A stretch of 64,000 bases of DNA from a phage: assembly GCA_036611895.1 (NCBI GenBank), contig GCA_036611895.1_4766.1; one strand, 5' to 3'. The notes under the pieces were generated by a model, which was not told the DNA's origin, did no database searches, and saw only the letters and a program-made list of their open reading frames with translations. Shown one piece after another: positions 44,628 through 63,900 of this stretch. A program made the position numbers and the translations under genes. The first letter of the stretch is position 1; every line of letters starts with the position of its first letter.

Positions 44628-45830
44628 ATGTTAAACTATAACGCTCCAATTGACGGTCAGAAATCTAGCATTGATGGTGCTGGTTCCGACCAGATGAATA
44701 CCTATTACTGGCTGAAGAAGGCTATTATTCAGTCCCGTAAAGACCAATATTTTATGCCTCTGGCTAACACCGTTAACATGCCGAAGAACTACGGTAAGAC
44801 TGTTAAGGTGTATGAGTACGTTCCTCTGCTCGACGACAAGAACATTAACGACCAGGGTATTGATGCCAATGGTGCTACCATTGTTAATGGTAACCTGTAC
44901 GGTTCTTCCAAAGACGTTGGTAACATCACTTCTAAACTGCCTCTGCTGTCAGAGAATGGTGGTCGTGTTAACCGTGTAGGCTTTACCCGTCTGGCTCGTG
45001 AAGGTTCCATTCATAAGTTCGGCTTCTTCTATGAATTTACCCAAGAGTCTCTGGACTTTGATTCTGATGACCAACTGAAAGAACACCTGTCTCGTGAACT
45101 GATGAACGGTGCTGTACAGTTGACTGAAGCTGTTCTTCAGAAAGACCTGCTGGCTGCTGCTGGTACTGTATTGTATGCAGGTGCTGCTGTCTCTGATGCT
45201 ACCATCACTGGTGAAGGTTCTACCCCGTCTGTAGTTTCTTATAAGAACCTGATGCGTCTTGACCAGATTCTTACTGAGAACCGTACCCCGACTCAGACTA
45301 CTATCATCACTGGCTCTAAGCTGACAGATACTAAAGTACTTGGTGGTACTCGTGTAATGTACGTTGGTTCTGAACTGGTTCCAGAACTGAAAGCGATGAA
45401 AGACCTGTTTGGTAATAAAGCATTCATCGAAGTTCAGCACTATGCTGATGCTGGTACTCTGATGAATGGTGAAATCGGTTGTATTGATAAGTTCCGTATC
45501 ATCCAGGTTCCAGAGATGCTGCATTGGGCAGGTGCTGGTGCTCAGGTTACTACTAACCCGGGTTACCGTACCTCTATGGTATCTGGTCAGGAGCACTACG
45601 ACGTATTCCCGATGCTGGTAGTTGGTGATGACTCCTTCTCTACCATTGGCTTCCAGACTGATGGTAAGTCTGTTAAGTTCACCATCATGACTAAGATGCC
45701 TGGTAAAGAAACTGCTGACCGTAATGACCCGTATGGTGAAACTGGCTTCAGTTCTATCAAGTGGTACTATGGTATCCTGGTTAAACGCCCAGAACGTCTG
45801 GCTCTGATTAAGACTGTTGCTCCTCTGTAA
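44628..45830 (+). CDS. major capsid protein
   Basis: 400 aa; size and synteny match N4 major capsid protein as recalled; followed by strong terminator. Confidence 0.65.
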
Positions 45831-45846
45831 TAGTCCGAAATAAAAC

Positions 45847-45872
45847 AAGGGGGACATTAGTCCCCCTCTTAA
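45847..45872 (+). terminator. intrinsic terminator after capsid gene
   Basis: gggggac-atta-gtccccc hairpin followed by tctt. Confidence 0.55.
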
Positions 45873-45897
45873 TAAAACTAAATGAACCACAGGAAAT

Positions 45898-46536
45898 ATG
45901 AACATGAGCATTAACGATAAACCGACCACTGACGTAGAAGTGAACGTACAGGGCAACGAAGATACCGTTAACGATATTGCAATGCCTAGCGAACTTGAAG
46001 TTCTTAAGCAACGTGCAACGTTGATGAATATCAAGTTCTCTAACAACATTTCCGTTGAAAAGCTTCGTGAGAAGATTGAAGCTGCACAAGTAAAAGATGA
46101 ACCAGTAGTAGAAGCTTCTGTTAACCCACTTGGTGCTAATCAAGAAGCTGGCGTTAAGAAGATGACCCTGGGTCAGAAGATTCGTGCAGAACAGACTCGA
46201 CTGATTCGTGTACGCATCCAGAACCTCGATCCTAAGAAGAAAGACCTGCCTGGTGAGATTATCACCGTAGCTAACGAATATATGGGTACTGTACGTAAGT
46301 TTGTTCCGTTCGGTGAAGTGACCGATAATGGCTATCATATTCCGTATTGTATCTACGAGTTCCTTAAAGAACGCAAGTTCATCAACATTACGACTCGTAA
46401 AGGTAAGAATGGCTTACCGGACATCCGTGCAACAGAAGCACGTGAGTTCTCTATTGAAGTACTGCCTCCGTTGACTGAAGCAGAATTAGCTCAACTGGCT
46501 CAAGCACAGATTGCTGCTGGTAGCCTTAACGATTAA
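45898..46536 (+). CDS. virion-associated protein (212 aa)
   Basis: ORF track; late-region position. Confidence 0.45.
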   Translation: MNMSINDKPTTDVEVNVQGNEDTVNDIAMPSELEVLKQRATLMNIKFSNNISVEKLREKIEAAQVKDEPVVEASVNPLGANQEAGVKKMTLGQKIRAEQTRLIRVRIQNLDPKKKDLPGEIITVANEYMGTVRKFVPFGEVTDNGYHIPYCIYEFLKERKFINITTRKGKNGLPDIRATEAREFSIEVLPPLTEAELAQLAQAQIAAGSLND

Positions 46537-47450: not shown

Positions 47451-50105
47451 ATGGGCTTATTCAGTGGGAAGACCAAAGTATACGTAGCATCCTCTGTCTA
47501 TAACATGGCAGGGGATATTCACAAACGTCCTAACTATATGAAGACTGTAGTCATTGGTAACATTATTTCCAATACAGGATTCACTATGGCAGACACTATC
47601 TCTGATAGTTATCTGAATGGACCCGGTATTCGTATGCGACTGTTCTCCAGCTGGAGTAAGAACCACTATGATTCAGAAGTTGGTATGGCTGGTTCTTCAT
47701 TAGGTGTACTGGCTAAGATTGACCCTACTGTAATAGAGGGTCAAATTACACCTCCTGCTGGGGAGTCTGTTTATGTTCAGGCAGCAGAGATTGGCTTTGC
47801 TGATTTTGAGCAATGGTGTGACCAGTACCTTTATGAGAATGCTCCAAGTCGAATCATGGAACGATTCGACGTAGACATTGATGAGGATACCAATGAAATT
47901 ACTATGACCTCCCTGGATGGAGGTTCTACTATTAAATTCACACCTACCAACTTTGAACCAGGTGCTTTGTATCTCTATGCTGATTACACGTCCTATAAGT
48001 CCCCTACTACTAATCCACCTGTAGTAGGACCGACTACTGTCTATGATGATGAGGATGACTTACCCTCTACTTTGTTATGGACTACCATCTCAAGTGATAC
48101 TACGGCCAATTCAACTAACCTTACCAAAACTATACATACTCATTCTGTTTACTCTGATGGCAGACCTGATGAAGACAGTACTGTCATTGAACCAAGCATA
48201 GATAATTGGAACTCTTACGTTAAGGTTTATCGTAGAGGATTCACTGAGAAACCTGATGATGTGACTGTAGTTGTATCTGACAGGGTAATGACCCATAGAA
48301 AGTTCGGTGAGATTCAGTCCAGTACTGCTGTAACTACCAATGTAGTAGATATTGGTGGGGGTGTTACTCGCACAGACACAATCACTACAACCACAGAGAC
48401 ACTGGTTCGTAAGTACTCATCTCAGACTACTCGTACTGACACAGAGATGACTGCTGTTGGTACACCTAAGATGCTTATCTATAAACAGAACTCTGGTAAT
48501 GTTGCACTGGATTCTCTGTTTGAGACTGAGGCTACTGATAACCGATTCTACCCGTTCATTCCAATCAGGAATGATAAACGATGGGTAGAAAATGACCCAA
48601 TCTACCCACACTGTAAGAAAGCTCTTTATAAAGCTACTGGTGGAAAAATTGATAAAGTAGTCACGGAGCTTAAGAAGAATGATGACATAGGTGATATTCA
48701 GTACATTTATGGCACATTTGGTGTATCTCTTAATACCCCAGAAGATGCTGCTAAGGAATACATCTACCGTTTCTTTCAGATGGCTACTGAAGCATTCCCA
48801 CCTGACCCAACCTACCCGACTTTGGAAGCAGTAATTGCAGGTTATCAGGCAGCTAATGATGCAGTTGATGCATATGTAGAATGGTGGAACAGGACTGAAG
48901 GGCATACTATTGGAACTCCTCCACCACTGCCAGAATACCCTGTAATACCTAAACGAGAGTTTAGAGTGCATAGTAATAAGCATTATAAATACGACATGAC
49001 CATTGGTTGGAACTATGTGTCTGAAACTACACATTCAGGGCAAGCATGGGCTGGGGCTAAGCAGGGACAACTACGAGCCAGATATGCAGGAGATATAACC
49101 CTTACTCGCAAGAACATAAGGACAGCTTCTAACTCCGGTTCTGCTAAGAAACTTGAGGTAACATATACATTCTATTCAATGCAGGAGTATGAGTTACTTT
49201 GGCAGGATGGTAATAACACTTACCGTAAACTCAGAGTATTGGGCCTAAACCACAATAACAGGGTATATAAGAATAAGTCAGTGCACATTGATGTTGCTGA
49301 AGCAATGGGTGATGCAGAAGAAAGTGGATTCATTATTCCACTGCACACTAACATTTACCGTTCAATGTCACTGGTTCGAAGTACTCAGCTATCTACTGCC
49401 TGTTCCTACTTAGTGATGAACTCATATAAGAAGGTTAAGCAGAAATGGTATCAGACCGGGGCATTTAAGATTGTTGTTGTAGTGGTTGCTGTGGTTATTT
49501 CTGTATTTACAGCCGGTGCTGGTGGTGCAGGCATACTTGGTGCATATGGTGCAGTTGGTGCTTCACTTGGTTTTGTTGGATTAGCTGCTGTGATAGTTGG
49601 TGCTGTAGCAAATGCTATTGCTGGAATGATTCTGGTATCCATTATCACTAAAGTATCCACATCACTGTTCGGTGATAAATTGGGCTTTATTATTGCAGCT
49701 ATTGCCTCAATGGTAGCTATGAATGTTGGTACTGCCCTGTCTACCGGTACATCTCTGTCCACTCTGGCAAGTGAAATGATGAATGCCCAAAACATCATGC
49801 AGCTTACCAGTTCAGTAGGTAATGGTATTAGCCAGTATATTAATGCATCTACGGCTGCTACTATTCAGAAAGCAGAGAAAGTAATGCAGCAGTACAATAC
49901 TGATATGATGGCAATCAATAAGCAGTATGAAGAAATGTTTGGTACTGCTGGACAGGGTGTAATTGACCCTATGCAATTCGTGTCAATGGAGTCACTGGAT
50001 TCATTCTTATCACGTACTCTTATGACTGGTTCAGATATAGCCGACATGTCTTTAGACATGATAGGTAACTACTCTGACATGACCCTTAATACTGACCTAG
50101 TTTAA
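47451..50105 (+). CDS. internal virion/ejection protein with C-terminal multi-helix hydrophobic domain
   Basis: 884 aa. C-terminal 250 aa dominated by Gly/Ala/Val-rich hydrophobic stretches (FKIVVVVVAVVISVFTAGAGGAGILGAYGAVGASLGFVGLAAVIVGAV). Confidence 0.5.
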   Translation: MGLFSGKTKVYVASSVYNMAGDIHKRPNYMKTVVIGNIISNTGFTMADTISDSYLNGPGIRMRLFSSWSKNHYDSEVGMAGSSLGVLAKIDPTVIEGQITPPAGESVYVQAAEIGFADFEQWCDQYLYENAPSRIMERFDVDIDEDTNEITMTSLDGGSTIKFTPTNFEPGALYLYADYTSYKSPTTNPPVVGPTTVYDDEDDLPSTLLWTTISSDTTANSTNLTKTIHTHSVYSDGRPDEDSTVIEPSIDNWNSYVKVYRRGFTEKPDDVTVVVSDRVMTHRKFGEIQSSTAVTTNVVDIGGGVTRTDTITTTTETLVRKYSSQTTRTDTEMTAVGTPKMLIYKQNSGNVALDSLFETEATDNRFYPFIPIRNDKRWVENDPIYPHCKKALYKATGGKIDKVVTELKKNDDIGDIQYIYGTFGVSLNTPEDAAKEYIYRFFQMATEAFPPDPTYPTLEAVIAGYQAANDAVDAYVEWWNRTEGHTIGTPPPLPEYPVIPKREFRVHSNKHYKYDMTIGWNYVSETTHSGQAWAGAKQGQLRARYAGDITLTRKNIRTASNSGSAKKLEVTYTFYSMQEYELLWQDGNNTYRKLRVLGLNHNNRVYKNKSVHIDVAEAMGDAEESGFIIPLHTNIYRSMSLVRSTQLSTACSYLVMNSYKKVKQKWYQTGAFKIVVVVVAVVISVFTAGAGGAGILGAYGAVGASLGFVGLAAVIVGAVANAIAGMILVSIITKVSTSLFGDKLGFIIAAIASMVAMNVGTALSTGTSLSTLASEMMNAQNIMQLTSSVGNGISQYINASTAATIQKAEKVMQQYNTDMMAINKQYEEMFGTAGQGVIDPMQFVSMESLDSFLSRTLMTGSDIADMSLDMIGNYSDMTLNTDLV

Positions 50106-50118
50106 CAGGAGAATCCCT

Positions 50119-50562
50119 ATGGATTTGTCATTCTTAACAGGCAACCAAACCCCACAGCCAGCTGCTATGTCTTGGATGTCTAATAACAATCAGAACTTTA
50201 ATACCCCGGCTATGAACTATAACCCTGGTGCTGCTATCGGTATGGGTACAAATTTGGGGGCAACTTCCCCTACTTCTTTCATGTCGGGTTCAGCTAATCA
50301 GTTGGGCCTGAATGTACCCACCTTCCAGTTAGGACTGGGTGCACTTGGTTCATTAGCTAATATCTATAGTGGTTTCCAGGCCAATAAGTTAGCCAAAGAC
50401 CAGTTGAACTTTACTAAGAGTGTTACTAACACTAACCTGAATAACCAGATTAAGTCTTATAACACTGCACTGGAAGACCGTGCTCGTAGCCGTGCTGTTG
50501 CAGAAAACCGTGACCAGTCTTCAGCTGATGCTTACATTGCAGCTAATAAATTAACCCGTTAA
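50119..50562 (+). CDS. virion protein, low-complexity (147 aa)
   Basis: ORF track; Asn/Gly/Ser-rich. Confidence 0.45.
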   Translation: MDLSFLTGNQTPQPAAMSWMSNNNQNFNTPAMNYNPGAAIGMGTNLGATSPTSFMSGSANQLGLNVPTFQLGLGALGSLANIYSGFQANKLAKDQLNFTKSVTNTNLNNQIKSYNTALEDRARSRAVAENRDQSSADAYIAANKLTR

Positions 50563-50574
50563 TAGGAAACCATC

Positions 50575-52521
50575 ATGGCTCAAATTACATGGCGTAATGT
50601 TGATGCACCTAACTTCTCTGGAGTTGGTGACAGCATTCGCACATTTGGTAGCATGATTGGTAACGCCACCTCCGGCTTAAGTGATGCACTGGGTAATTTC
50701 CAGAACGCTGCCAAGCAGGAGGCTGGCAATGCCGTCATGATGAATGCTATGCAGTATCAAGACCCTACTGAGTATCGTAATGCTTTGGCATCCGGTGCAT
50801 TGTTCCAGGGGGTTGACCCTTCACTCGTAAACCAACATACCCTGCAGAATCTGGATGAGCGAGCAGGTACTCTGTTGACCCAACAAGGTCAGCAGGGAAT
50901 TAATGACTACAATGTTTATCGTTTTGGTCGTTTACAGGATAATGACTCTGCATTAGATAATGCATCTCCAGCTATTCGTTTACTGTCTGAGGCTTATCAG
51001 TCTGGCGACCAGAATCGTATTAATGCAGCATTGAGTCAGACTCGTGATGCACTGTCTGCACTTCCTGCTGACCAACAACTGGATATGCTGAGCCGTCTTC
51101 AAGGTCAGGGTGGTCAGGCTATTAACCAAGCACAGAACCGCTTTGATTTGGGTGTGGCTCAACGCAATGATGCGGATTCACAAGCTGCATCCGGTATATT
51201 GACGGACATTTTCCGCAGTGCTTCTACACCTATGGATGCTCTTACACTGGCAGAGTCTGCTATGAAGAATGCTTCTCCTGGTGTACGTGCTGCAATCATG
51301 CGAGGTGTGAACCAGAGGTTCCCGGGTACTTATGCTGCATCCCCTTCTGGCTCTTCTCCAGGAACTGCTGGTACTCGTTCTGGTTCCCCTTACGATGCAA
51401 CCTATACCTTTGCAGCTACTGATAAGCCTATTACTGAGATGACCCTTGGTGAGGTTACTAACCATCAGCAAACTATGATTAATAACCCATCACAAGGTCA
51501 TTCTCCTGTAGGTGCATTCCAGATTAATAAAGCTACCCTGGAAGACTATGCTCCTAAGGTGCTTGGTTCAAATTGGCGTAATCAGCAAATGACTCCTGAA
51601 GTGCAGGACAAAATAGCTGAAGCAATCTTCAATGACCGTAAGAATGGTAACCTTTCTAAGACTTGGGCTGCATTGCCTGACCTTGGTGTGGGTGGTTATA
51701 AGGACATGCCTTGGAGTGAAGCACGTCAGTTAATTGCACAGGCAGAGGTAGGTGCATCTCTTGAGCAGTTACAGACCCAACAAGTAGTTTCAAACATGGC
51801 AGGCAATACAGTTGCTGCACGTCAGTCTGAAGATAATACTGGAACCATTACTGCTAACTATGCTCGTGCATTACGTGATAACTCTACCATTGGTGAAGTA
51901 GCAGACCGTCTTCTTAAGGATGCTTTTAAAGGTTCTGAGAAAGGATGGATGATAGCTCGACTGAATGATGTTATGCAGGAATCCGGACAGTCTCCTGCTG
52001 TAGCTGCTGAGATTCTTAAGCAGTCTACTACCAACGTACCGGAAGGTATGATTAGTCGAGCACTCGATGCACTTAACCCATTTATCTCCAATGAAGGTGG
52101 TGGTGGTATTCGCATTGATGATACCGTTGCCAGAGAACTGGCACGTTCAGTACGTCGTGGGGAAGGTATTGAAGCTACTGCTCGTGATAGTGTTCTTACT
52201 CAGGTGCAAGGTAATATTGCAAATGCCCAGAACCAGGTAACGCAAGCAGAAGCCTTACTTGCTGATACTCGCCGTCGTGTAGCTGCTGGACAAAGTGGGC
52301 TTGCTGCTACTATTCCTGCTCGTGAGGCTGAGTTAGTAAGAGCACGGGCTGCACTGGATGCTGCTGTCAATACTGTGGTAGCTAACCAAGGAAACCTGGT
52401 TCCACAGAACTTCCGTTCTAATGCTTCAGTAGAACGTGAGCGTAGTCGTGAAGATGAAGAACGAGCTAGACGTTATCGAAAATTAGCAGAGGGTTTACCT
52501 CCCTATATGCAACCTCGATAA
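50575..52521 (+). CDS. internal virion protein, possible lytic-transglycosylase-like segment
   Basis: 648 aa. NNPSQGHSPVGAFQINKATL loosely resembles the SLT-domain S..GA.GLMQ motif; weak. Confidence 0.45.
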   Translation: MAQITWRNVDAPNFSGVGDSIRTFGSMIGNATSGLSDALGNFQNAAKQEAGNAVMMNAMQYQDPTEYRNALASGALFQGVDPSLVNQHTLQNLDERAGTLLTQQGQQGINDYNVYRFGRLQDNDSALDNASPAIRLLSEAYQSGDQNRINAALSQTRDALSALPADQQLDMLSRLQGQGGQAINQAQNRFDLGVAQRNDADSQAASGILTDIFRSASTPMDALTLAESAMKNASPGVRAAIMRGVNQRFPGTYAASPSGSSPGTAGTRSGSPYDATYTFAATDKPITEMTLGEVTNHQQTMINNPSQGHSPVGAFQINKATLEDYAPKVLGSNWRNQQMTPEVQDKIAEAIFNDRKNGNLSKTWAALPDLGVGGYKDMPWSEARQLIAQAEVGASLEQLQTQQVVSNMAGNTVAARQSEDNTGTITANYARALRDNSTIGEVADRLLKDAFKGSEKGWMIARLNDVMQESGQSPAVAAEILKQSTTNVPEGMISRALDALNPFISNEGGGGIRIDDTVARELARSVRRGEGIEATARDSVLTQVQGNIANAQNQVTQAEALLADTRRRVAAGQSGLAATIPAREAELVRARAALDAAVNTVVANQGNLVPQNFRSNASVERERSREDEERARRYRKLAEGLPPYMQPR

Positions 52522-52538
52522 AATCTTACATACTAATA

Positions 52539-52562
52539 AAGCCCCATCCGGGGCTTTTCTCT
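52539..52562 (+). terminator. intrinsic terminator before vRNAP gene
   Basis: aagcccc-atcc-ggggctt hairpin followed by ttctctt. Confidence 0.55.
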
Positions 52563-52606: not shown

Positions 52607-55600
52607 TTGAACAGGAATCATGCTATGTCAACATTTGACCGTCTGGCAGGTTTCGCAGACAGCATCACTACTGCTAAGCAAGTCGATGTCTCTACTGCAA
52701 CCTCTCGGAAACAAGCTGAACAAGGGCAAAGCCCTTTCCAATTAACTCCTCAGAATGCCTACCAATTACAGGCAGGACGTGCCGGTGACTTAGGTGCTGG
52801 TGCATTTGAACCAGGTTCTATTCAGGCAGATTTTACTAATGCCTCCCCCCTTGAAATCGTAAACAAGTATGGCAATGAGCAAGGAATGGACATTCTCAAT
52901 GCTCGTGTCAATGCAGCTAATTCTGTTCGTCGTGATTTAACTAAGAGTCGTACTTATGGTGAAGCACTTGGTGATACCCTTTCTGGTGTTGGTCTTGGTG
53001 TTGCTAATACCCTTGGGGGCATTGCTGCTCTTGGCACAGGTTTGGTCAATGATAATGCCGGGGCAACCATTGCTTCCAGTCTTGACTGGTTGAATAAAGG
53101 TGTACACAACCTACAGTCTGATGCACTGAATGCTCGCCGTAATGTAGTACAGAACCAGAACGTAATATCTGCACAGGAAAATGAGAAACAGTATAAGCAG
53201 GATATTGCTGAAGGAGAAAGTGAACTCGTTGCTTCCTTGTCTCGCATTGGTCGTGATGCTTACGATTCTGTCGCTAACACTTTGTCTAATGGCATGGCTG
53301 CTACAGATGGTCTGGCTGAGGGTGTTGGTTCACTGTTTACTGGTGGTCCACTTATCCGTGGTGTATCTGCACTAGGTAAGGTAATGGTAGGTGGTGATAA
53401 AGCTGTTAAGGGCATTACCTTAGCTGCTGAATTAGGTTCACGTCCTGCACGAATTGCACAGTCTGCTGGTCGTGTTGCTGCACCTGCTATAGCAATTGGT
53501 GGTATGGAAGCTGGTGGTGCATACCAACAGACTGCTAATGAAATTATGGAAATGCCATTCAGTGAACTGGCTGCTAAATCTCCTGTATACCAACAGCATA
53601 TTAAAGACGGTTTATCTACTGAAGAAGCACGACGTCAGACTGCATCTGAAACAGGTATCACTGCTGCTGGTTTAACTGCTCCAGTTGCTGCTCTTACTGC
53701 TCCACTGGTATCCAAGTTTGAACTTAATCCACTTAAGGTAGGTTCACTGGCTGGTGCTGGTTCTAACATGCTGCGAGAGACTGTAGAAGAAGGTATTCAG
53801 TCTGGTACAAGTCAGTTTGCACAGAACAAGGCAATCCAAGGTAATGTTGATGCATCTCGTGACATCCTCAAAGGTGTAGGCGAACAAACTGGTCTTGGTG
53901 CATTGTATGGCTTTGGTTCTGCTGGAGTTGCTCAAGCTCCTGGTGCAACTGTTAAGGCTGCTGGTGCTGCCGTTGGTCCTGCTGTACGTACTACCCTGGC
54001 TGGTGCTTCTCTGGCTGGTAAGGCATTAGCAAAAGTAGCTTCTCCTATTACTAACATCCTGGTTCAACGTGGGGAAGAAGTTGCTAAGCGTAATGAACAA
54101 GCATCCCCTGTATCTGATGCTACGGTTAACGCTGCTGCACAGGAAGCTACTGCTCAGGCAGAACAAGCACAAGCAACTGTACAGGAAGCAGTAGATGCAA
54201 TGGATATTTCTCCAGAAGAGAAAGCTGCTGCTACTCAGTATGCTGCTGACTTAACTCAGGTAATGAAGTTTGATCCAGTAGAACTGGAACAAGCTAGTCC
54301 AGTAGTCCGTGAAGCTGTTTCTGGTTCCACTAACCGTGTTGAAGCTATTCAGAAGATGGCTGACCTGGTTAATACTGCTGAAGACCCTAACGTTCAAATG
54401 GAAGCTGCAATCCAGATGTATGACAACATTATGTCTATGGATAGCTTCATTAACCGTGATCCAGGTGCATTAGCTAATCTGGAACAGGGTTCTCCTGCTG
54501 CTAATATTGTTGATCAGTTCTCCGGTCTGATGGCTAATGTACAGAATACACCGAAGGTACTCCGTGCATTCCGTGCCATTCATTCCATGATTCAGGAACA
54601 GGCAGAAGCAGGTAAACTGAAAGCTACTGAAGAAGCTAACCAAGCCCAAGCAAACAACATTGCTATGGCTGCTGATATGTCTCCAGAAGTGCTGGACGCA
54701 GATTCAGTGAACATGGTTCTGAAACATGCAAGTGAAGGTAAGATTACATTGGGGAATCGTCAGCGTGCTGCCCTGCAATCTGCTGCTGCTCTATTGCAAG
54801 GAGCACGGGAATTTGACGCTAAAGCAGAAGAACTAGGCTTACGTCCTCAAGACATTGTTAGTAAACAGATTAAAACCGACGAATCTCGTTCTAATGAAGG
54901 TCAGTACTCTGCGTTGCAACATGCTAAACGCATTCGTTCTGCGTACAACTCTGGTAACTTCGATTTGGCTTCCGCTTATCTCGACGACTTTATGAAGTTC
55001 GCCCAGCACATGCAGAATAAGGTCGGAGCGTTGAATGAGCATCTGATTTCTGGGAATGCGGATAAGAATAAGTCTGTCCATTATCAGGCTCTTACTCCCT
55101 CGCGTGAATGGGTACGTAGTCGTACTGGCCTCGGTGTCAATCCGTATGATACCAAGTCTGTTAAGTTTGCCCAACAAGTAGGACTGGAAGCCAAGACCGT
55201 AGCTGATATTGCTAACGCACTTGCTACGGCTTACCCGGAGCTTAATGTTTCTCATGTGAAAGTTACCCCATTGGATTCACGTCTGGACAAGCCTGCTGCC
55301 CAGGTAGTTAAAGAGTTCCGTCAGGGCAATCTTGATGCTGCTCAATCCCAACAGACCAATGAACCAGTGAATCAGGTTGATGAAACTCCTGTTACAAAAC
55401 AGGAACCAGTTACCCCTACTGTACAGACTAAACCCTCTGTTAGTGAAGCTGTTAAAACAGAACCCACTATTAAAGAGTCTAAACCACAGGCTGTAAAAGA
55501 ACCTGAGAATCAGTCTGAATCTTCTATCCCAGCTGGGCCTGAAATGAAGACTGCTGAGTTCACCGGTAAACAGCAAGCCTCATATATGCAGTTAGGTCAG

Positions 55601-58600
55601 TACTTTGCTTACAACGGTAAAGACTTTATTGCTATTGGCAAAGATATAGAAGGCACTCGTGCTGTTCCTGTTACTGGTGGTAAGACTATTGTTATTCCAG
55701 GAGAAACTACTGTTACAGGTAAAAGTGACGTACTGACTTCCTTTAAGTATGGGGAAACAAATGTACCTTACGTTATGACTCCAGAAGGTCGAATCTTTAG
55801 TCTACGTAGTACTCGTGAGGTATGGGCTACCCCATCTCAGGCTCGTACAGATTTCCTTAACTATGTTCGGAATACATTCCCTCAACCGGAATCTGCTCCG
55901 GTTAATGTAGAGGAAACAAAGTCTGAATCCGAAAAGCCAAATGATACTACCCTTACTAATGAGGATACCATCGAGCAGTCTACTGAATCTGAAAGGGATG
56001 CTTATGTAAAAGAGAATACTATTTCTCAAGAAACTCTTAATAAGTATGGTGACCGTAGGGAGAGTCCATGGCTCTTTGCTGATGGTACTGTTGTTGGTTC
56101 CAATGGTGACCATATCAGTCTGTCCGATGTATTTGGTCATGATGGGTATCGTGACATGTCTCTGGATACTGGTGCTGTGCGTTCTACCTTCTACAAGGCC
56201 AAGTCTGGCCATCCTGAGGATGTGGACTTCGTGTCGCTGCAGCTGTTTGATAATCAGAAGCTGACTGCTGAACAATTCAATACCGTTCAATCTTTCGTTG
56301 AAGCCAATAATGCACATATTCTGGTTGGTGTAGATACATCTGGGCTTAATACCAATAACGTTGAGGAAGATGAAGTATCACTGGCTCAACTGAAAGCAGA
56401 CCATACCGTGGGCGGTGAACCTCTATCTCAAATGGAAACAGTGTTCCCTGTCTATAACAACGAAAAGACACCGAACCAGTTCCTTAAAGCATTTTCTCTA
56501 CCAGAAGAACCTAAGTCTCGTACCATTGGTTCTGAATCTCCTTTAACTGATGTTAAGAAAGCACTGTCTTCTGCTGCTCGTTTTGAAGCATTCACTCAAA
56601 AAGAAAATAACGCTCTCACAAGTGATGTGATTAAGCGTTATCAGGACTTGTTTGATTTTGGTGAAACTCTGAAGACTACTCTGTCTGACCGTCTGGCTAA
56701 GTTCCTTGCTAATAAGAATGTTGGTAAACGTTTTGCAGAGGGTACTGAGGCTAACCGTTGGGTAGGTGGCAAACTGCTTAATATCGTAGAGAAAGACGGT
56801 GACACCTTTAAGTTCAATGACCAGTTGTTGGAGACTGCTGTACTTGCTGGTCTGCAATGGCGACTGACTGCTACACAGAATGCTGCCATTAAAGACATGA
56901 AAGACGTAGCTGCTATTACTGGTGTAGAAGCATCTCTGCTACCAGAAGGCATTTTGGCTGACTTCGAAAATGCTCAGACATTGGTTGAAGCTACTAACTC
57001 ACTGGCTCAAAAGATTGAATCCTATTGGGGTTTAAATCGTAATCCTAATGCACCACTGGGTTATACCAAGGGTATCCCAATGGCAATGGCTACAGAGATT
57101 CTGTCTTCTCTCATTGAAATGGGTGAAGTTAAAGAGTCCATGCTGGATGTATCTGAGATTGACCCAGAATCTAACAAGACTGTTGGTCTGTATACCATTG
57201 AGAAGTTAGACGATAACGATGCCATTAATAAATTCCCTACTGCTATTGAAGAAGCTGTTCTCGTAGAACCAGTAGAGAAACTGTACCTGGGTGATGATAT
57301 TCCTTCCGTGGCTCAAACTCAGTTACGTAATCCGGCTGTTAAGAATACCCCAGAACAGAAAGCTGCTCTTAAAGCAGAACAGGCTACTGAGTTTCGTGTA
57401 CATATGCCGATGGTTAACTTCTATGAAGCAATGGGTCGTGACAACATTCTGGAATTGATGGGTGCTGGTGCTCTTAATCCTGAGCTACTGAATGTGAATA
57501 CTGCTAAATCTCTGGAAGGTAAAAACCTGTCCGTGTCCATGGCATATGATTCCTTGTTTGGTGTAATCAATCAGATTAAGGAACAGGAGAATGGGCTGGA
57601 TACACCTATTCACTATGGTTACAACATGACCCGTGTAGGTCGTATGCAGATGCTTGGTAAGAACAATCCACAGTCCAGTAAGCTGGTACGTGAAGCAATT
57701 CTACCAACCTTCTCTACCATCGACTTGAGTAATGAAAACAGCCAAACGTTCTCTGACTTCCAGTTAGGTCTGGCTCAGGCATTGGGCATCAAAGTTCATA
57801 AAATGTCTCGCGAAGTTATGTCAGATGAACTGACTAAAGCTCTGGAAGGTAAACTGAAACCTGCCGTCGATATGATGGTTGAGTTTGATAAGTCTGGGCA
57901 CTTACCTACTAATGCAGTGGATATTCTGAAGACTTCCTTGGGGAATGATAAATCATTCGTAGCTCTTATGGCTCTTATGGAATATGCCCGTTACCTGAAT
58001 AGTGATGACCGTGCTAACTTTAATACCCCACTGTACGTTGAAGCTGATGGTGTAACCAACGGACCAATCAACGCAATGGTACTGATGACGGGTGGTAAGT
58101 TCACTTCAGACTGGATTAAGAATACTGCTAAGGGTGGTTTGTTCTTCGGTAAAGCTGGTAAGACCATGAATGAGCATCATTCGCATGAGGACAGCGTTGA
58201 CCTGTATGAAGCATCCACTAATAGTCTGCAACAGGCACTGAATGAATTGCGTAATACTTATCGTAACAACGTTCCTGTTACGAACCAGATGAAGCATCTT
58301 CAGAAGTTAATGGACCTGTTCATTAAAGACTTCAATCTTAATGAAGATGGTACTCTGGACCTGAAACGTGGTATCGCTAAAAACCCACTGACTATTACCA
58401 TCTATGGTTCTGGTGCTCGTGGTATTGCAGGCAAGATGGTTAGTGCAATTACTGATACCATCTACGAACGCTTCAGCGACGTTCTGCAAGCCCGTGCTGC
58501 TGACCCTAGCATTTCTCCAGCTATGGCTATGTTTGGTAAAGAGGCTGCATCTGAAGCTGATGCTCAGGCTATGCTGGATACCTTCCTTACTTCTATGGAA

Positions 58601-61600
58601 GCATTAACTGGTAATGTTCCAGTTATGCGTAAAGGTGAACTGTCTATTCAACAAGTAGAGGGTGCTCTGTCTGGTAAGTTAGACCCCCAGAAGTTTACCG
58701 TATCTGGCAATGCTCTGAAGAACCTGCAAGAGAATATGCTTCACCTGTTCGTTGAACCAATGCGTACTGGTATCCGAAATACTGTTGGTGAAGGGTTGAT
58801 GCACTCTACTGAGAACTTACAGAAGGCTACCCAGATTCAATCACTGGTATTGCAGGATATGTTCCAACAAGCTGTACAGGCTAAGCTGGCAGAAAAAGAA
58901 AAAGACCCAACATGGAAGAAAGGTGATTTCTTAACACAGAAAGAACTGAATGAAATCCAGAATAGCTTAGCTCCGCTGGCTCCAATGATTGAGACTGGTT
59001 CTCAAACATTCTACATTGCTGGTAGTGAGAATACTGATGTTGCTAACCAAGTACTGGCTACCAACTTAGATGACCGTATGCGTGTGCCAATGAGCATCTA
59101 TGCTCCTTCACAGGCAGGTGTTGCAGGTATTCCATTTATGACCATCGGTACTGGTGATGGCATGATGATGCAGACTCTTTCTACTATGAAAGGTGCTCCG
59201 AAGAATACCCTGAAAATCTTTGATGGTATGAACATTGGCATTAATGACATCTCTTATGCAAGCCGTAAAGCTAATGAGGCTGTATATACTTCCTGGCAGG
59301 GTAATCCTATTAAGAATGTATATGACTCCTTTGCTAAGTTCATGAAGAACGTAGACTTCAGCAAACTGTCTGATGAAACCAAACAGGCTATCGCTAAGTC
59401 TGCTCTGGAGTATGACCAACGTGAAGGTGCTACTGATGACCTGTTACGCGTTGGTGCTGAACAGATTGAACGTAATCTGCGTAACATTGCTTTGGGTGTA
59501 GATATTCGTCACAAGGTAATGGACCAGGTACAGGTCACTGTTGACCAGATGGCTGCTGTAGGTGCTCCTTATGTGAACAACGGTAAAATCTCTCTGGAAG
59601 GTTTAACTGTAGACCAGCAAGTAGCTAAGCTGAATGAACTGTTTGATGCTGAATTAAATAAGCGTCGTGATGCAGTACGTGCTGCTAAAGCAGAGTCAAC
59701 GAAGGTAGAACCAGTGAAAGAAGTGCCAGTGGTTGAAGTGCCTGCTATGGAGAAGGTTGGTCGTGTACTGAAGTCTGGTGTACGCCTGCTGTCTAATACT
59801 GCCATTACTAAGCTGGCTAAAGAGATGTCTCCTGAACAACAAGCAGTATTGAAAGAAATACAGAAATCCCTTGCTGCTAAAGACTACAAGGTTGTTTACG
59901 GTACACCTTCTCAACTGGATGCCTACGCTATTGAGAAGAATATTACTCGCCCAGCACCAGAAGATATTGAAGCTGCTGAAGCAGGCAATGCATACGGTTG
60001 GACTAACTTTGAAGATAAGACCATCTACTTAGTTACCCCTTCCTTAGAGACTCTGGTTCATGAATTGGTACATGCTTCTACTTTTGAATCTGTACTGGCT
60101 CACTATGAGGGTACTCCTAACGAAGCAGTCCAGAATATTGAAGACCTGATGAACCAGTTCCGTGCTCTGGATGTTAAGGACGAATCTCCGGCAGTACGTG
60201 AAGCATATGCTGATGCACTCAATACCATTAATGGTCACTTGTCTAACGGCTTTATTGAACCAGCAATGGCTAAAGCTGCTGCACTGAATGAGTACATGGC
60301 CTGGGGTTTAACCAACCGTGAATTGATTGGCAAGCAGAAGAAAACCACTGCACTTAAAACTATGGTTCAGGCTGTATATGAAGCAATCAAACGTCTGGTA
60401 TTCGGACGTAAGAAAGCTCCGGCTAATGCAGATGATATGTTCTCTGGCTTACTGTTTAACTCTGCTGTAGTAATGCGTGGACAAGCTCCTACTGCTGCTG
60501 TAGCCAAAGACACTACCTTGTTCCATAACAAAGCATACGGTGACAATACTCGTCTGGAAGAGCTAGGGAAAACCTTCGATAAGCTGATTACTGACTACAT
60601 TGGTTCAGAACCAGTACAACAAGTAATTCGTAAAGGTAAGTTCTCTGATGCAGTAGTGAATGCAACTAAAGTAACTCGCGATGTTCAGGCTCATGGCTTC
60701 ACCATGAATATGCAGGAACAGCGTCTCTTTACTAACATTGTTGCTGCACTAGCTACCGAGGCTACTATTAACCCAGCTGCCATGGCTCGTGCACAGGAAT
60801 ACTACACGCATGTTACTAAGAACCTGACTGTTGAAGCGTTCATGGCTGACTCTGATAGTACTAACCCTGCTGACCGTTACTATGCACAGCAGAAGTTCGA
60901 TACCATTATGGGTGCTAACAACATTGAGTTTGATGCACAGGGTCGTTCTTCCTTACTGCCTACCTTTGTTGGTCTGGCAATGGTAAGTGAAGAGGTACGT
61001 AAGGTACTGGCTGATATTCCTGTTATGAAAGCAGATAAGAAATCAGGCAATACTGTTGATGCAATGCTGACTAACATCGGTACTGCTGCAATGGCTAGTC
61101 TGAATGCTCGTGTAGCAGGTGATACTAAAGCTACTAACGTACAGGAAGGTATGGATGCACTGGCTCAGACAATCATGCAGACCAGCCTTAATGCAGAGTC
61201 TTTCTATGATTCCGTTGCTACTCCTACCGGTAATGCTATTGACCGTGCTAACCAGTATCTGGTGGATTCTATTGATGCACTGTCTACTCGTACTTTGGAA
61301 GGTGCTCGTGAAGTTGCAGCTAATACCAAGAACCCACTGGTTAAAGGTGCTGCTCATGCTGCACAACTGATAGCTGCTATTGCTACAGAGAAGAATGGTT
61401 CAATCGTAGCTGAAGGTGTTATGGCTGCAATGAACCAGGGTAAAGTATGGCAACCTTTTCATGACCTGGTTAATGACATAATCGGTCGTACTAAGAGCAA
61501 TGCTTCCGTATATGATTTGATTAAAGCAGTACGTGCACAGGTACAAGCAGACCGTCAACAGTTCCGTGAACATTTGCCTACCACTATCGCATCTAAGTTC

Positions 61601-63862
61601 AGCCGTAAGCTGACTAATGATGAGTGGAAAGTAATGCATATCGGTATGGGTAAAACTGACTTAGCTGTTCTGCGTGACACTATGTCTCTGGCTGAAATTC
61701 GTGACCTGCTAACTGACCAAAAAATTGTTGACCGTGAGGTTAATAAACTGGAAGCAGATTTGCAAAAACAAGCAGGACGTAACTGGCCTCTAATTAGCCG
61801 TAAATCTAAGCAACTGGCTCAGTACATGATTAATGGTACAGTCGGGAATAACCTGCTGCGTAATGCTACTGCAATTTCTCGTTTACTGGGTGAACGTAAG
61901 ACTACGCGTTCTGTTGTAGATGTAGCTCAGCTGGATAAGCTGATTACTCTGTATGCACTGGAAGCAATGAATAAGACTGACCGTGAGATGTTATCTTCGC
62001 TGGCTCAGACAGAAATTGAAGGCATGGATTTTGCTACTTCTTACCTAGTTGGTCAGCGTAAGGATGAAATGGCTAAAGCTAAGTCTGATTCTCGTGCAAC
62101 CCTGAACCAGTACAAAGGGTATATTCCTGGTGAAACTAAACAGGGTGTTAACCTGATTGTTGCTGAAGATAATCAGTTTGCTGATTTGATTGAGAAGTCT
62201 TATGTACGACTGGGTACATATCAGGGTAGCTCTGCTAATCGAGGTCCAGCACGTAGTTACTACTTTGCACCAGTGCAGGCACAGGCTCCATTCTCACAGG
62301 GTATCCTACAGAACGTTCGCAATACTGCTGGTGGTGTAGACCTTGGCACAGGCTTTACGATGGGAACCATGGTAGCTGGTCGTATTACTGACAAGCCTTC
62401 CGTAGACCGTATCACTAAAGCACTGGCTCGTGGTGAACGTGGTAATGAGCCACTACTGCCTGTATATGATGCCAATGGTAATGTGGTTGCTTACGAGCAA
62501 TCCATTGACCCTAACATGCTGAAGCATATTGAAGGTGAGAATCATCTTGCTCGTGCAATTGGTGTATGGCGTGGTCGTCAGGTAGAAGAAGCTAAGGCCC
62601 AGCGTTTCAACGATATGCTGATTGAGAACCTGCATAGCATGTATGAAAACGACATTAAGATGTCTGCATCTAATAAGTCCCAGTACGTTAACCTTCTTGG
62701 TTCTAAACTGGACCCAGTGACTGCTGATGCTCTTAAGCTGATGAACAGTGAAACACGTCAGAAAGCAGAAAGTCTGTTTGGACCAGGTGAACTGTGGGTA
62801 CGTCGTGACATGCTGAATGATGCTTTAGGCTATCGTGCAGCTTCTGTTGGTGATGCCTGGTCTGGTAATTCTCGTTGGTCCCCAGAAACACTGGATACCT
62901 TCAAGAAAGCTATGCTGGGTGTATTCGGCAACCGTGCCTATAAGTACGTAATGGGTGGTGAGAATCTGGTTCAGAACTTAGTTAAAGAAGCTAAGACTCT
63001 GATTGTAGTTAAGTCAGTAGTTGTACCTGCTGTTAACTTCCTGGCTAACCTTTACCAGATGGTTGCTCGTGGTGTGCCTGTTAAGAACATTGCTAAGAGT
63101 ATTCCACAGAAAACTGCTGAGATTAATCAGTATCTGAAATCTCGTCTGCGTCAGGTAGATGCAGAAGCAGAGTTACGTGCAGCTACTAACCCGAACCAGA
63201 TTCGTAAGTTGAAAGCTGAGATTCAGTCCATCACGGATAGTCATAAGCGTTTGAGTATCTGGCCTCTGTTGGAAGCTGGTGAGTTCTCTTCAATTGCAGA
63301 TGCTGGTATTGGGCGAGATGACATTCTGATTACTGAAGGTAAACTTCACGAATACATGGAAAAGCTGGCTGATAAGTTGCCTAAGTCTGTACGTAACGCA
63401 GGTCGTTATGCACTAATCACTAAGGATACTGCTCTCTTCCAGGGTATCCAGAAGACGGTTGAGTACTCTGACTTTATCGCTAAAGCAATCATCTATGATG
63501 AACTGACTAAGCGTAAAGGTAAGACTCGTGAAGAAGCACTTGGACGCGTAACGGAAGAGTTCATTAACTATGACCGTCTGCCAGGTCGCTTCCGTGGGTA
63601 TATGGAAAGTGTTGGCTTAATGTGGTTCTACAACTTTAAAATTCGTTCTGCAAAAGTTGCAGTATCCATGATTCGTAATAACCCAGTACATGCTGCTATG
63701 GCTATGCTGGCTCCAACTCCAACTATGTTTGGTAATGTTGGTCTGCCTATTCAGGACAATATCTTTAGCATTGCTGCACAAGGCAATCTCGGTTACTCCT
63801 TCGGTTTCGGTCAAGGCTTACGTGCCCATAACCTGAACCCTTGGCTCAACCTTACTAACTAA
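52607..63862 (+). CDS. virion-encapsidated giant RNA polymerase (N4 vRNAP-like), 3751 aa
   Basis: Single ORF. VEADGVTNG (Asp near aa 1813), IAKNPLTITIYGSG (Lys 1925, Tyr 1933) and IFDGMNIG (Asp near aa 2206) reproduce the D-K-Y-D spacing (111, 8, 282) that I recall for N4 mini-vRNAP D559/K670/Y678/D951. Likely true start is second in-frame ATG at about 52625 (AGGAA RBS). Confidence 0.9.
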   Translation: MNRNHAMSTFDRLAGFADSITTAKQVDVSTATSRKQAEQGQSPFQLTPQNAYQLQAGRAGDLGAGAFEPGSIQADFTNASPLEIVNKYGNEQGMDILNARVNAANSVRRDLTKSRTYGEALGDTLSGVGLGVANTLGGIAALGTGLVNDNAGATIASSLDWLNKGVHNLQSDALNARRNVVQNQNVISAQENEKQYKQDIAEGESELVASLSRIGRDAYDSVANTLSNGMAATDGLAEGVGSLFTGGPLIRGVSALGKVMVGGDKAVKGITLAAELGSRPARIAQSAGRVAAPAIAIGGMEAGGAYQQTANEIMEMPFSELAAKSPVYQQHIKDGLSTEEARRQTASETGITAAGLTAPVAALTAPLVSKFELNPLKVGSLAGAGSNMLRETVEEGIQSGTSQFAQNKAIQGNVDASRDILKGVGEQTGLGALYGFGSAGVAQAPGATVKAAGAAVGPAVRTTLAGASLAGKALAKVASPITNILVQRGEEVAKRNEQASPVSDATVNAAAQEATAQAEQAQATVQEAVDAMDISPEEKAAATQYAADLTQVMKFDPVELEQASPVVREAVSGSTNRVEAIQKMADLVNTAEDPNVQMEAAIQMYDNIMSMDSFINRDPGALANLEQGSPAANIVDQFSGLMANVQNTPKVLRAFRAIHSMIQEQAEAGKLKATEEANQAQANNIAMAADMSPEVLDADSVNMVLKHASEGKITLGNRQRAALQSAAALLQGAREFDAKAEELGLRPQDIVSKQIKTDESRSNEGQYSALQHAKRIRSAYNSGNFDLASAYLDDFMKFAQHMQNKVGALNEHLISGNADKNKSVHYQALTPSREWVRSRTGLGVNPYDTKSVKFAQQVGLEAKTVADIANALATAYPELNVSHVKVTPLDSRLDKPAAQVVKEFRQGNLDAAQSQQTNEPVNQVDETPVTKQEPVTPTVQTKPSVSEAVKTEPTIKESKPQAVKEPENQSESSIPAGPEMKTAEFTGKQQASYMQLGQYFAYNGKDFIAIGKDIEGTRAVPVTGGKTIVIPGETTVTGKSDVLTSFKYGETNVPYVMTPEGRIFSLRSTREVWATPSQARTDFLNYVRNTFPQPESAPVNVEETKSESEKPNDTTLTNEDTIEQSTESERDAYVKENTISQETLNKYGDRRESPWLFADGTVVGSNGDHISLSDVFGHDGYRDMSLDTGAVRSTFYKAKSGHPEDVDFVSLQLFDNQKLTAEQFNTVQSFVEANNAHILVGVDTSGLNTNNVEEDEVSLAQLKADHTVGGEPLSQMETVFPVYNNEKTPNQFLKAFSLPEEPKSRTIGSESPLTDVKKALSSAARFEAFTQKENNALTSDVIKRYQDLFDFGETLKTTLSDRLAKFLANKNVGKRFAEGTEANRWVGGKLLNIVEKDGDTFKFNDQLLETAVLAGLQWRLTATQNAAIKDMKDVAAITGVEASLLPEGILADFENAQTLVEATNSLAQKIESYWGLNRNPNAPLGYTKGIPMAMATEILSSLIEMGEVKESMLDVSEIDPESNKTVGLYTIEKLDDNDAINKFPTAIEEAVLVEPVEKLYLGDDIPSVAQTQLRNPAVKNTPEQKAALKAEQATEFRVHMPMVNFYEAMGRDNILELMGAGALNPELLNVNTAKSLEGKNLSVSMAYDSLFGVINQIKEQENGLDTPIHYGYNMTRVGRMQMLGKNNPQSSKLVREAILPTFSTIDLSNENSQTFSDFQLGLAQALGIKVHKMSREVMSDELTKALEGKLKPAVDMMVEFDKSGHLPTNAVDILKTSLGNDKSFVALMALMEYARYLNSDDRANFNTPLYVEADGVTNGPINAMVLMTGGKFTSDWIKNTAKGGLFFGKAGKTMNEHHSHEDSVDLYEASTNSLQQALNELRNTYRNNVPVTNQMKHLQKLMDLFIKDFNLNEDGTLDLKRGIAKNPLTITIYGSGARGIAGKMVSAITDTIYERFSDVLQARAADPSISPAMAMFGKEAASEADAQAMLDTFLTSMEALTGNVPVMRKGELSIQQVEGALSGKLDPQKFTVSGNALKNLQENMLHLFVEPMRTGIRNTVGEGLMHSTENLQKATQIQSLVLQDMFQQAVQAKLAEKEKDPTWKKGDFLTQKELNEIQNSLAPLAPMIETGSQTFYIAGSENTDVANQVLATNLDDRMRVPMSIYAPSQAGVAGIPFMTIGTGDGMMMQTLSTMKGAPKNTLKIFDGMNIGINDISYASRKANEAVYTSWQGNPIKNVYDSFAKFMKNVDFSKLSDETKQAIAKSALEYDQREGATDDLLRVGAEQIERNLRNIALGVDIRHKVMDQVQVTVDQMAAVGAPYVNNGKISLEGLTVDQQVAKLNELFDAELNKRRDAVRAAKAESTKVEPVKEVPVVEVPAMEKVGRVLKSGVRLLSNTAITKLAKEMSPEQQAVLKEIQKSLAAKDYKVVYGTPSQLDAYAIEKNITRPAPEDIEAAEAGNAYGWTNFEDKTIYLVTPSLETLVHELVHASTFESVLAHYEGTPNEAVQNIEDLMNQFRALDVKDESPAVREAYADALNTINGHLSNGFIEPAMAKAAALNEYMAWGLTNRELIGKQKKTTALKTMVQAVYEAIKRLVFGRKKAPANADDMFSGLLFNSAVVMRGQAPTAAVAKDTTLFHNKAYGDNTRLEELGKTFDKLITDYIGSEPVQQVIRKGKFSDAVVNATKVTRDVQAHGFTMNMQEQRLFTNIVAALATEATINPAAMARAQEYYTHVTKNLTVEAFMADSDSTNPADRYYAQQKFDTIMGANNIEFDAQGRSSLLPTFVGLAMVSEEVRKVLADIPVMKADKKSGNTVDAMLTNIGTAAMASLNARVAGDTKATNVQEGMDALAQTIMQTSLNAESFYDSVATPTGNAIDRANQYLVDSIDALSTRTLEGAREVAANTKNPLVKGAAHAAQLIAAIATEKNGSIVAEGVMAAMNQGKVWQPFHDLVNDIIGRTKSNASVYDLIKAVRAQVQADRQQFREHLPTTIASKFSRKLTNDEWKVMHIGMGKTDLAVLRDTMSLAEIRDLLTDQKIVDREVNKLEADLQKQAGRNWPLISRKSKQLAQYMINGTVGNNLLRNATAISRLLGERKTTRSVVDVAQLDKLITLYALEAMNKTDREMLSSLAQTEIEGMDFATSYLVGQRKDEMAKAKSDSRATLNQYKGYIPGETKQGVNLIVAEDNQFADLIEKSYVRLGTYQGSSANRGPARSYYFAPVQAQAPFSQGILQNVRNTAGGVDLGTGFTMGTMVAGRITDKPSVDRITKALARGERGNEPLLPVYDANGNVVAYEQSIDPNMLKHIEGENHLARAIGVWRGRQVEEAKAQRFNDMLIENLHSMYENDIKMSASNKSQYVNLLGSKLDPVTADALKLMNSETRQKAESLFGPGELWVRRDMLNDALGYRAASVGDAWSGNSRWSPETLDTFKKAMLGVFGNRAYKYVMGGENLVQNLVKEAKTLIVVKSVVVPAVNFLANLYQMVARGVPVKNIAKSIPQKTAEINQYLKSRLRQVDAEAELRAATNPNQIRKLKAEIQSITDSHKRLSIWPLLEAGEFSSIADAGIGRDDILITEGKLHEYMEKLADKLPKSVRNAGRYALITKDTALFQGIQKTVEYSDFIAKAIIYDELTKRKGKTREEALGRVTEEFINYDRLPGRFRGYMESVGLMWFYNFKIRSAKVAVSMIRNNPVHAAMAMLAPTPTMFGNVGLPIQDNIFSIAAQGNLGYSFGFGQGLRAHNLNPWLNLTN

Positions 63863-63867
63863 ATGAA

Positions 63868-63900
63868 AAAGCCCCTCATTAGAGGGGCTTGTTTTTTATT
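63868..63900 (+). terminator. strong intrinsic terminator after vRNAP gene
   Basis: agcccctc-atta-gaggggct followed by tgttttttatt. Confidence 0.75.

Follow-up and report, generated by a model that had tools for sequence, protein, structure and literature searches.

The 64,000-nucleotide (nt) stretch of phage DNA analysed here (GenBank assembly GCA_036611895.1, contig GCA_036611895.1_4766.1; the whole stretch is called the window) carries on its plus strand a giant gene which, judged from its sequence, is the virion RNA polymerase (vRNAP) gene of a Gamaleyavirus (G7C-like, Schitoviridae) and the homologue of phage N4 gp50. The N4 vRNAP is packaged in the virion, ejected into the host and transcribes from early hairpin promoters. 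The window protein is colinear with N4 gp50 over its full length, and its sole departure consists of two insertions, named here modules A and B, in the first linker, which joins the N-terminal domain (NTD) to the RNA polymerase (RNAP) domain.

The open reading frame (ORF) runs uninterrupted from 52607 to 63862 on the plus strand (3751 codons counted from a TTG), and the ORF of 3751 amino acids (aa) reported in an earlier note on this DNA is thus real, though its start is not. The TTG at 52607 is a product of mechanical ORF calling only, merely the first possible start, while the first in-frame ATG lies at 52625, 8 nt downstream of an AGGA at 52613-52616 (read from the sequence). Translation from this ATG gives MSTFDRLAGF..., the N-terminus annotated in eight further vRNAPs besides N4 and G7C, and the length of the protein is therefore 3745 aa. 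The features of the gene and its immediate surroundings are given below, with the internal limits read from an alignment of 10 vRNAPs.

47451-52521, plus strand: ejection-protein genes, homologues of gp53 (47451-50105), gp52 (50119-50562) and gp51 (50575-52521), found by blastp
52613-52616, plus strand: Shine-Dalgarno-like AGGA, 8 nt 5' of the real start codon
52625-63862, plus strand: vRNAP coding sequence (N4 gp50 homologue), 3745 aa and stop, start ATG 52625
52625-55327, plus strand: NTD (aa 1-901; N4 1-906), 60.5% identity to N4 and 97.4% to HK2
55328-55522, plus strand: linker segment 1 (aa 902-966), E/Q/T/P/V-rich, conserved in N4
55523-55885, plus strand: module A (aa 967-1087), orphan insertion
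55886-55981, plus strand: linker segment 2 (aa 1088-1119), an acidic spacer, rich in Ser/Thr, that separates the modules (E 22%, T 16%, S 12%)
55982-56422, plus strand: module B (aa 1120-1266), compact alpha/beta domain (alignment and AlphaFold2 model)
56426-59683, plus strand: RNAP domain (aa 1268-2353; mini-vRNAP equivalent, N4 1007-2101), four Pfam domains, 70.9% identity to N4
58046-58048, plus strand: catalytic Asp1808 (N4 D1556, mini-vRNAP D559; motif A)
58379-58405, plus strand: motif B, Lys1919 to Tyr1927 (N4 K1667, Y1675)
59222-59224, plus strand: catalytic Asp2200 (N4 D1948, mini-vRNAP D951; motif C)
59684-59755, plus strand: short linker between the RNAP and C-terminal domains (aa 2354-2377; N4 2102-2123), limits from PMC13434306
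59756-63859, plus strand: C-terminal domain (CTD; aa 2378-3745), 70.1% identity to N4
63869-63890, no strand assigned: bidirectional intrinsic terminator directly 3' of the vRNAP stop codon

Identity and domain layout of the polymerase

The best nt matches to the gene are those of Escherichia phages nithesis and HK2 (94.3% over 96% of its length), and its identity to G7C is 88% over 99%; altogether, 59 phage records match it at a coverage of at least 80% and an nt identity of 80-95%, the majority of them annotated as virion RNA polymerase. At the protein level, a phmmer search of PDB sequences matched the full-length N4 vRNAP chains (PDB 11GP, 9PNQ and 9PNR) at 5073 bits, and therefore the likeness is not due to chance. 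The N4-specific polymerase sub-domains (plug, helical and vRNAP domains) are present by Pfam as PF21894 (340 bits), PF21867 (194), PF21769 (189) and PF21624 (94), each against a cut-off of 27 bits. Moreover, D1808, K1919, Y1927 and D2200 align column for column with N4 D1556, K1667, Y1675 and D1948 (D559/K670/Y678/D951 in mini-vRNAP numbering, the set of T7-like single-subunit RNAPs) and are invariant in 10/10 aligned vRNAPs. The earlier note, which had called the protein an N4-type vRNAP from these residues, was right on the type and on the N4 spacing; of its positions in TTG numbering, K1925, Y1933 and D2206 are exact, while the first Asp is residue 1814 and not 1813, which is Ala. The gene order upstream is also that of N4, homologues of gp54, gp53, gp52 and gp51 preceding the vRNAP gene (blastp to N4 and HK2). 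As a polymerase, the protein is nothing unusual among G7C-like phages, and its architecture is already in the databases through G7C gp50.

The domain limits were borrowed from a study of N4 by cryo-electron microscopy (cryo-EM), in which the NTD spans residues 1-906, a low-complexity linker 907-1006, the RNAP domain 1007-2101 and the CTD 2124-3500 (PMC13434306), and were carried over through the alignment of the vRNAPs of N4, KP8, PW8, PhAPEC7, G7C, HK2, Bp4, Bas96, PhAPEC5 and the window. The NTD, which in N4 serves membrane association (PMC13434306, PMC13492108), has 901 aa versus 906 in N4 and aligns end to end with it, showing no expansion. The RNAP domain (1086 aa versus 1095) and the CTD (1368 versus 1377) are likewise of N4 size, while the NTD-RNAP linker (residues 902-1267) has 366 aa versus 100. 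Relative to N4, the catalytic core is thus displaced by +252 residues, and the protein exceeds N4 gp50 by 245 aa when counted from the ATG (251 from the TTG), close to the roughly 250 residues proposed in the earlier note for both. The whole surplus is confined to this linker as the two discrete blocks A and B, neither evenly spread nor C-terminal, as the alignment with N4 and other vRNAPs makes clear. The surplus had been assigned to the N-terminal region thought to handle genome injection; it does lie N-terminal to the core and not in the CTD, but in the linker rather than in the injection domain.

The same correction applies to the Pro/Thr/Lys/Glu-rich stretch that had been counted as part of the expansion. 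The peptide PVTKQEPVTP...EPENQ is present as quoted (aa 928-969 in TTG numbering, window 55388-55513) and lies inside linker segment 1, but N4 conserves such a stretch at residues of about 925-971, and it belongs to the linker already described for N4 (residues 907-1006; PMC13434306). Linker segment 1 is 98.5% identical to HK2 and only 59% to G7C, with a ratio of nonsynonymous to synonymous substitution rates (dN/dS) of 0.34 versus G7C. The CTD, which in N4 is the autoinhibitory and encapsidation domain (PMC13434306, PMC13492108, PMC5512222), contains the motif HELVH (aa 2479-2483, window 60059-60073), whose HExxH pattern is kept in 10/10 vRNAPs. Despite this motif, the CTD matched none of the Pfam peptidase models at E 0.1 or better. 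A zincin-like metallopeptidase (MPTase, HExxH) fused to an N4-like RNAP has been described among the polyvalent proteins (PMC5512222).

Distribution, relatives and selection of modules A and B

The two modules differ in their distribution. In the 10-vRNAP alignment, module B is present in the window protein, G7C, HK2, Bp4, Bas96 and PhAPEC5 and absent from N4, KP8, PW8 and PhAPEC7, while module A is found in the window protein and G7C only. Three length classes of Gamaleyavirus vRNAPs result, of 3450-3452, 3570-3599 and 3745-3748 aa: those with no module (PW8, 3452 aa; PhAPEC7, 3450 aa), those with B only (Bp4, 3570; HK2, 3594; Bas96, 3599 aa) and those with both (G7C, 3748; window, 3745 aa), and a span survey over more records with a module-free query agrees with this division. 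Of 50,697 phage records, 29 contain module B, every one a Gamaleyavirus; module A was found in 3, which come from two phages, G7C and Shigella phage B2.

Phage B2 belongs to the Humphriesvirinae, another subfamily than that of Gamaleyavirus, and its gp30 has been seen in virions by mass spectrometry (PMC11654681). B2 gp30 (3741 aa) carries module A at the equivalent linker position (aa about 963-1085), 83% identical in aa and 80% in nt, while the remainder of its vRNAP is only about 25-31% identical to the window protein in aa and 46% in nt; the module is missing from the nearest relatives of B2 (FSL SP-058 and others, 92% identical). The persistence of 83% identity in a polymerase otherwise about 30% identical is a mark of lateral transfer, and these comparisons imply that module A moved between schitovirus subfamilies. 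Beyond these phages, module A has no relative among 1.84 billion representative proteins searched exhaustively with A+B by HMMER. It likewise had no match in IMG/VR besides G7C, none in JGI metagenomes and none in GTDB genomes by the degenerate pattern NVPYVMTP(D/E)G, and a profile search of PDB sequences gave noise only. P0020, the sole module-A match in the 1.84-billion-protein search, was rejected as a repeat-protein artefact. A low-confidence AlphaFold2 model suggests short beta-strands and a C-terminal helix; it was not relied on, and by prediction module A is probably beta-rich.

The relatives of module B are far more widespread. The same search returned 20 matches, all to the module-B part except the spurious repeat protein. 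Most of the carriers are large multidomain proteins of 1.3-3.7 kaa (thousand aa), up to 3675 aa, and the others are short fragments or a solo protein. Their partner domains include SLT, ddrB-ParB, adenine methyltransferase (MTase) with SNF2-type helicase, LPD22, LPD38, LPD39 and InPase, a repertoire which is that of the polyvalent proteins of Iyer et al. 2017 (PMC5512222); one carrier adjoins tail and ejection genes on a 43-kb phage contig. In two distant metagenomic vRNAPs (P0011 and P0031, 23-31% identical), module B (34%) likewise sits between the NTD and the RNAP domain. The solo homologue, P0010, has 166 aa. Its gene (L014 7294-7794, on a metagenomic contig) is flanked by a DNA-polymerase-exonuclease gene and a ParB-HTH gene, and it sits a few genes upstream of a prokaryotic ubiquitin-like cluster (Prok_Ub, E2, JAB and ThiF). 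Close relatives of module B were found in no GTDB genome, and the IMG/VR matches were to Gamaleyavirus contigs only.

An alignment of 17 module-B sequences (21-58% identity) has eight invariant residues (S, P, L, G, D, H, R and Q) and the motifs SPWL-x2-DG, GDH, TGA(I/V)R and Q-x-LT-x2-Q; D1166/H1167 and R1190 of the window protein correspond to alignment positions D47/H48/R71. With this alignment as input, AlphaFold2 gave a compact alpha/beta domain at a predicted local distance difference test (pLDDT) of 90.7 and a predicted template-modelling score (pTM) of 0.86. None of the 17 copies matches any Pfam-deposited LPD family at E up to 1, and a profile search of PDB sequences returned noise only. 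A gelsolin/ADF-H-like and a Hjc/PD-(D/E)XK-like fold were considered for it and dropped, their structural superpositions not being significant. No PHROGs, PADLOC, NCBIfam or Pfam family was found for either module, and homology searches with A and with B in a protein index gave no match, the index seeming to lack such giant proteins. We regard module B as an uncurated polyvalent-protein domain whose function is possibly enzymatic. The window copy has a loop of its own, KAKSGHPEDVD (aa 1192-1201, window 56198-56227), five residues longer than the KG-SEQP found in every other Gamaleyavirus copy aligned; it lies between two strands of the model, in a region variable across the family, and nt identity to HK2 and G7C falls to about 72% there.

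In addition to module B, a stretch of the NTD (aa 301-427, window 53525-53905) is 30% identical, at E 1.6e-4, to aa 441-569 of P0004, a 3675-aa metagenomic polyvalent protein that combines module B with SLT, SNF2-type helicase, MTase and LPD39 domains, and by this similarity part of the vRNAP NTD may also be a shared polyvalent-protein element.

Relative to HK2, which lacks module A, the window gene is 96-100% identical in nt up to aa 966 and from aa 1276 on, and only 73-90% across module B; therefore, the A+B cassette is a recombinant patch from an unsampled lineage, and its GC content is the same as that of the rest of the gene. The dN/dS is 0.09-0.10 for module A (versus G7C and B2), 0.06-0.10 for module B and 0.04-0.12 for the polymerase core, while the two low-complexity linker segments have 0.3-0.5. 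As read from these substitution patterns, modules A and B are under purifying selection and are functional domains.

Related systems and genomic surroundings

The closest known counterpart is gp50 of vB_EcoP_G7C (YP_004782180.1, 3748 aa, deposited 2011), which shares the domain order including modules A and B, the flanking genes and the terminator, with aa identities of 88-93% in the NTD, RNAP domain and CTD, 86% in module A and 94% in module B. However, the window backbone is far nearer to the HK2/Bp4-type phages (97-98% aa), which lack module A, and its module B has a 5-residue longer loop than the G7C copy. Together with the 59% identity of linker segment 1, these differences mark the window phage as a recombinant and not a G7C isolate. 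N4 gp50 (3500 aa; PDB 9PNQ/9PNR/11GP, mini-vRNAP 2PO4/3C2P) has in common with the window protein the order NTD-linker-RNAP-CTD, the catalytic residues, the CTD HExxH and the Pro/Thr/Lys/Glu-rich linker, at 60-71% identity per domain, but contains neither module, its linker having 100 residues versus 366. Shigella phage B2 gp30, by comparison, shares module A at the same linker position and has no module B.

N4-like vRNAPs have been classed as polyvalent proteins, of which they are a founding member (PMC5512222), and the window vRNAP has the features of that class, being a large multidomain phage protein of a DNA-co-delivered type with shared, shuffled domains. Like the polyvalent proteins (e.g., P1 DarB/DdrB-like proteins, or the RPP1 vRNAP with ART), which are giant and multidomain, are delivered with DNA and have shuffled effector domains, it contains module B, but this module matches none of their Pfam-deposited domains, and module A was found in none of them.

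In other schitoviruses, the same linker site holds other cargo. In the vRNAP of Klebsiella phage Pylas (3819 aa; NC_049444.1 41315-43621, L016), the site is occupied by a further module, about 200 aa long, that is related to neither A nor B; it bears the motif HSGGAVGSD and matches four SLOG/DprA-type Pfam families below threshold (E 0.005-0.009). In that of Stenotrophomonas phage Pokken (NC_049463.1 48629-50158, L026), the insert measures about 105 aa and is one that Xanthomonas phage RiverRider lacks; it includes the GNAT motif RGQGGARKVL...FYESMGF and matches five GNAT Pfam families at E 0.001-0.015, all below the gathering scores. As well, the vRNAP of Roseovarius phage RPP1 (3760 aa) carries an ART-PolyVal domain (36.5 bits, cut-off 31.2) between its N-terminal region and RNAP core, a fusion previously noted by Iyer et al. 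(PMC5512222), together with a zincin peptidase N-terminal of the core.

No paper describing the G7C linker insertions was found, and the insertions reported in a horse-phage preprint lie in polymerase genes other than gp50. The new points are modest: the surplus resolves into two discrete modules, module A has passed between subfamilies, module B is an uncurated polyvalent-protein domain with a confidently predicted fold, and insertions recur in the linker.

The ejection-protein genes upstream of the vRNAP gene show contrasts of their own. The gp53, gp52 and gp51 homologues are 96, 80 and 95% identical to those of HK2 and 55, 59 and 46% to those of N4 (blastp). Between flanking genes at 96% and 95%, gp52 reaches only 80% identity to HK2, and gp51 has only 64% identity to its G7C counterpart; mosaicism thus extends to the ejection-protein block. 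The upstream gene and the vRNAP start are separated by a hairpin with a T-run after it (about 52540-52561, read from the sequence), at the place where a terminator is annotated in PhAPEC5 and PhAPEC7, and the terminator after the vRNAP stop is also annotated in G7C, PhAPEC5 and PhAPEC7. ARAGORN found no transfer RNA (tRNA) gene in the window (1-64000); in Bp4, PhAPEC5, PhAPEC7 and Bas96, tRNA genes are annotated 1-2 kb past the vRNAP stop, a position whose equivalent is just outside the window.

In the window as a whole, the GC skew changes sign near 27-28 kb; long ORFs left of this point are carried by the minus strand, those right of it by the plus strand, and the GC content drops to 37% at 24-26 kb. 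Such divergent arms are the usual arrangement of N4-like genomes. In the structural-gene arm, a 366-aa ORF on the minus strand (44949-46049) runs antisense to the plus-strand ORF 44628-45830 and is probably a frame open by chance.

A possible cargo slot in the virion RNA polymerase

Taken as a whole, it is highly probable that the window ORF encodes the encapsidated and injected single-subunit RNAP of a G7C-like schitovirus with the N4 layout, which is longer than N4 gp50 only through modules A and B in a linker that would be a permissive cargo slot, the modules being most likely early effectors. The NTD-RNAP linker would be structurally permissive, the modules being flanked by low-complexity spacer. 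According to the N4 model, the vRNAP passes through the tail in unfolded form, like loosely joined beads on a string (PMC13434306, PMC13492108), and therefore one more small bead would cost little; extra small domains in the unstructured linker would leave the NTD, RNAP domain and CTD undisturbed. The modules would thus travel with the earliest-arriving protein and be inside the cell as infection begins, held close to the incoming DNA on a tether that links the membrane-bound NTD to the polymerase; from there they might serve as early effectors, either of host take-over or of counter-defence. This early-effector role, for which the ART, GNAT-like and SLOG-like cargo at the same site and the polyvalent proteins serve as precedent, is in our assessment the likeliest one, held at slightly below even confidence. 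Several points weigh against the reading as a whole: neither module has a known activity, target or phenotype, and many close relatives are viable without one or both, so the modules are dispensable in at least some hosts. In addition, the GNAT (Pokken) and SLOG (Pylas) assignments fall below Pfam gathering scores, and module A lacks relatives outside three phages and a usable model, single-sequence AlphaFold2 of A+B giving a pLDDT of 36.

If the modules were passive spacers that lengthen or stiffen the tether, or tolerated hitch-hikers with no biochemical role of their own, their place within a disordered linker, the viability of relatives with none, one or two of them and the lack of a detected catalytic fold would all be expected. 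However, their dN/dS (0.06-0.10) is as low as that of the polymerase core, while true spacers have 0.3-0.5; polar D, H, R, Q and S residues are invariant in module-B copies across unrelated protein contexts and in the solo protein; and module A is still 83% identical after transfer into a polymerase otherwise 30% identical. We therefore regard a passive role as unlikely. Somewhat less probable still is that the modules help the ejected protein through the envelope, for instance by attaching in the periplasm to peptidoglycan or some other component of the envelope, instead of acting in the cytoplasm. Such a role would suit the weak match of the B2 module A to PF22753 (Ape1_N), the N-terminal domain of the peptidoglycan O-acetylesterase Ape1 (E 0.035, sub-threshold), the lytic transglycosylase domains in some of the polyvalent proteins that bear module B, and the passage of the vRNAP through the periplasmic tunnel after gp52 and gp51 (PMC13434306). 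Yet the PF22753 match reaches only 15 bits versus a cut-off of 27 and in 1/3 module-A copies, the linker finishes on the cytoplasmic side in the N4 model, and the other cargo at the linker site (ART, GNAT-like and SLOG-like) looks cytoplasmic.

That the genome-injection domain itself was enlarged, with a change in genome injection, agrees with the surplus residues lying N-terminal of the catalytic core, but is very improbable given an NTD of 901 versus 906 aa that aligns end to end with N4, a surplus made up of two linker blocks and the conservation of the quoted stretch in N4. Least of all, with a chance close to nil, do the insertions appear to be selfish elements (inteins or homing-endonuclease cassettes) or an assembly artefact. 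The junctions (...NQSES|SIPAG..., ...RNTFPQ|PESAP..., ...IEQS|TESER... and ...VGGEP|LSQME...) lack intein signatures, having neither Cys/Ser/Thr after His-Asn nor an N-junction nucleophile, and the structural echoes are not significant. Moreover, the insertions are in frame, under purifying selection and equal in GC to the rest of the gene, and the independently sequenced G7C genome has the matching architecture.

The cargo reading may extend to the family. Tentatively, at a little under an even chance, the NTD-RNAP linker of schitovirus vRNAPs could be a dedicated, recombination-prone cargo slot for exchanging small injected effector domains, even between subfamilies sharing a host; no fewer than five unrelated modules (A, B, ART, GNAT-like and SLOG-like) occupy it. 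In this reading, module B would be a new fold, probably enzymatic with a conserved Asp-His/Arg/Gln site and wide in polyvalent proteins, and module A a recently mobilised orphan effector.

The 2026 cryo-EM studies treat the N4 vRNAP linker as a featureless tether, whereas the length variation reported here is localised to it, the one place in a protein of roughly 3500 residues where schitoviruses gain, lose and swap small folded domains. Near-isogenic natural sets (PW8 with no module, HK2 with B only, and G7C or this phage with A+B) allow a direct test, and module B, as a widespread, confidently folded and uncurated family, is a reasonable target for structure-function work. The finding bears on how much folded cargo the beads-on-a-string translocation through a channel of about 35 Å can carry, and on which proteins reach the cell before any phage gene expression, when counter-defence would be most valuable.

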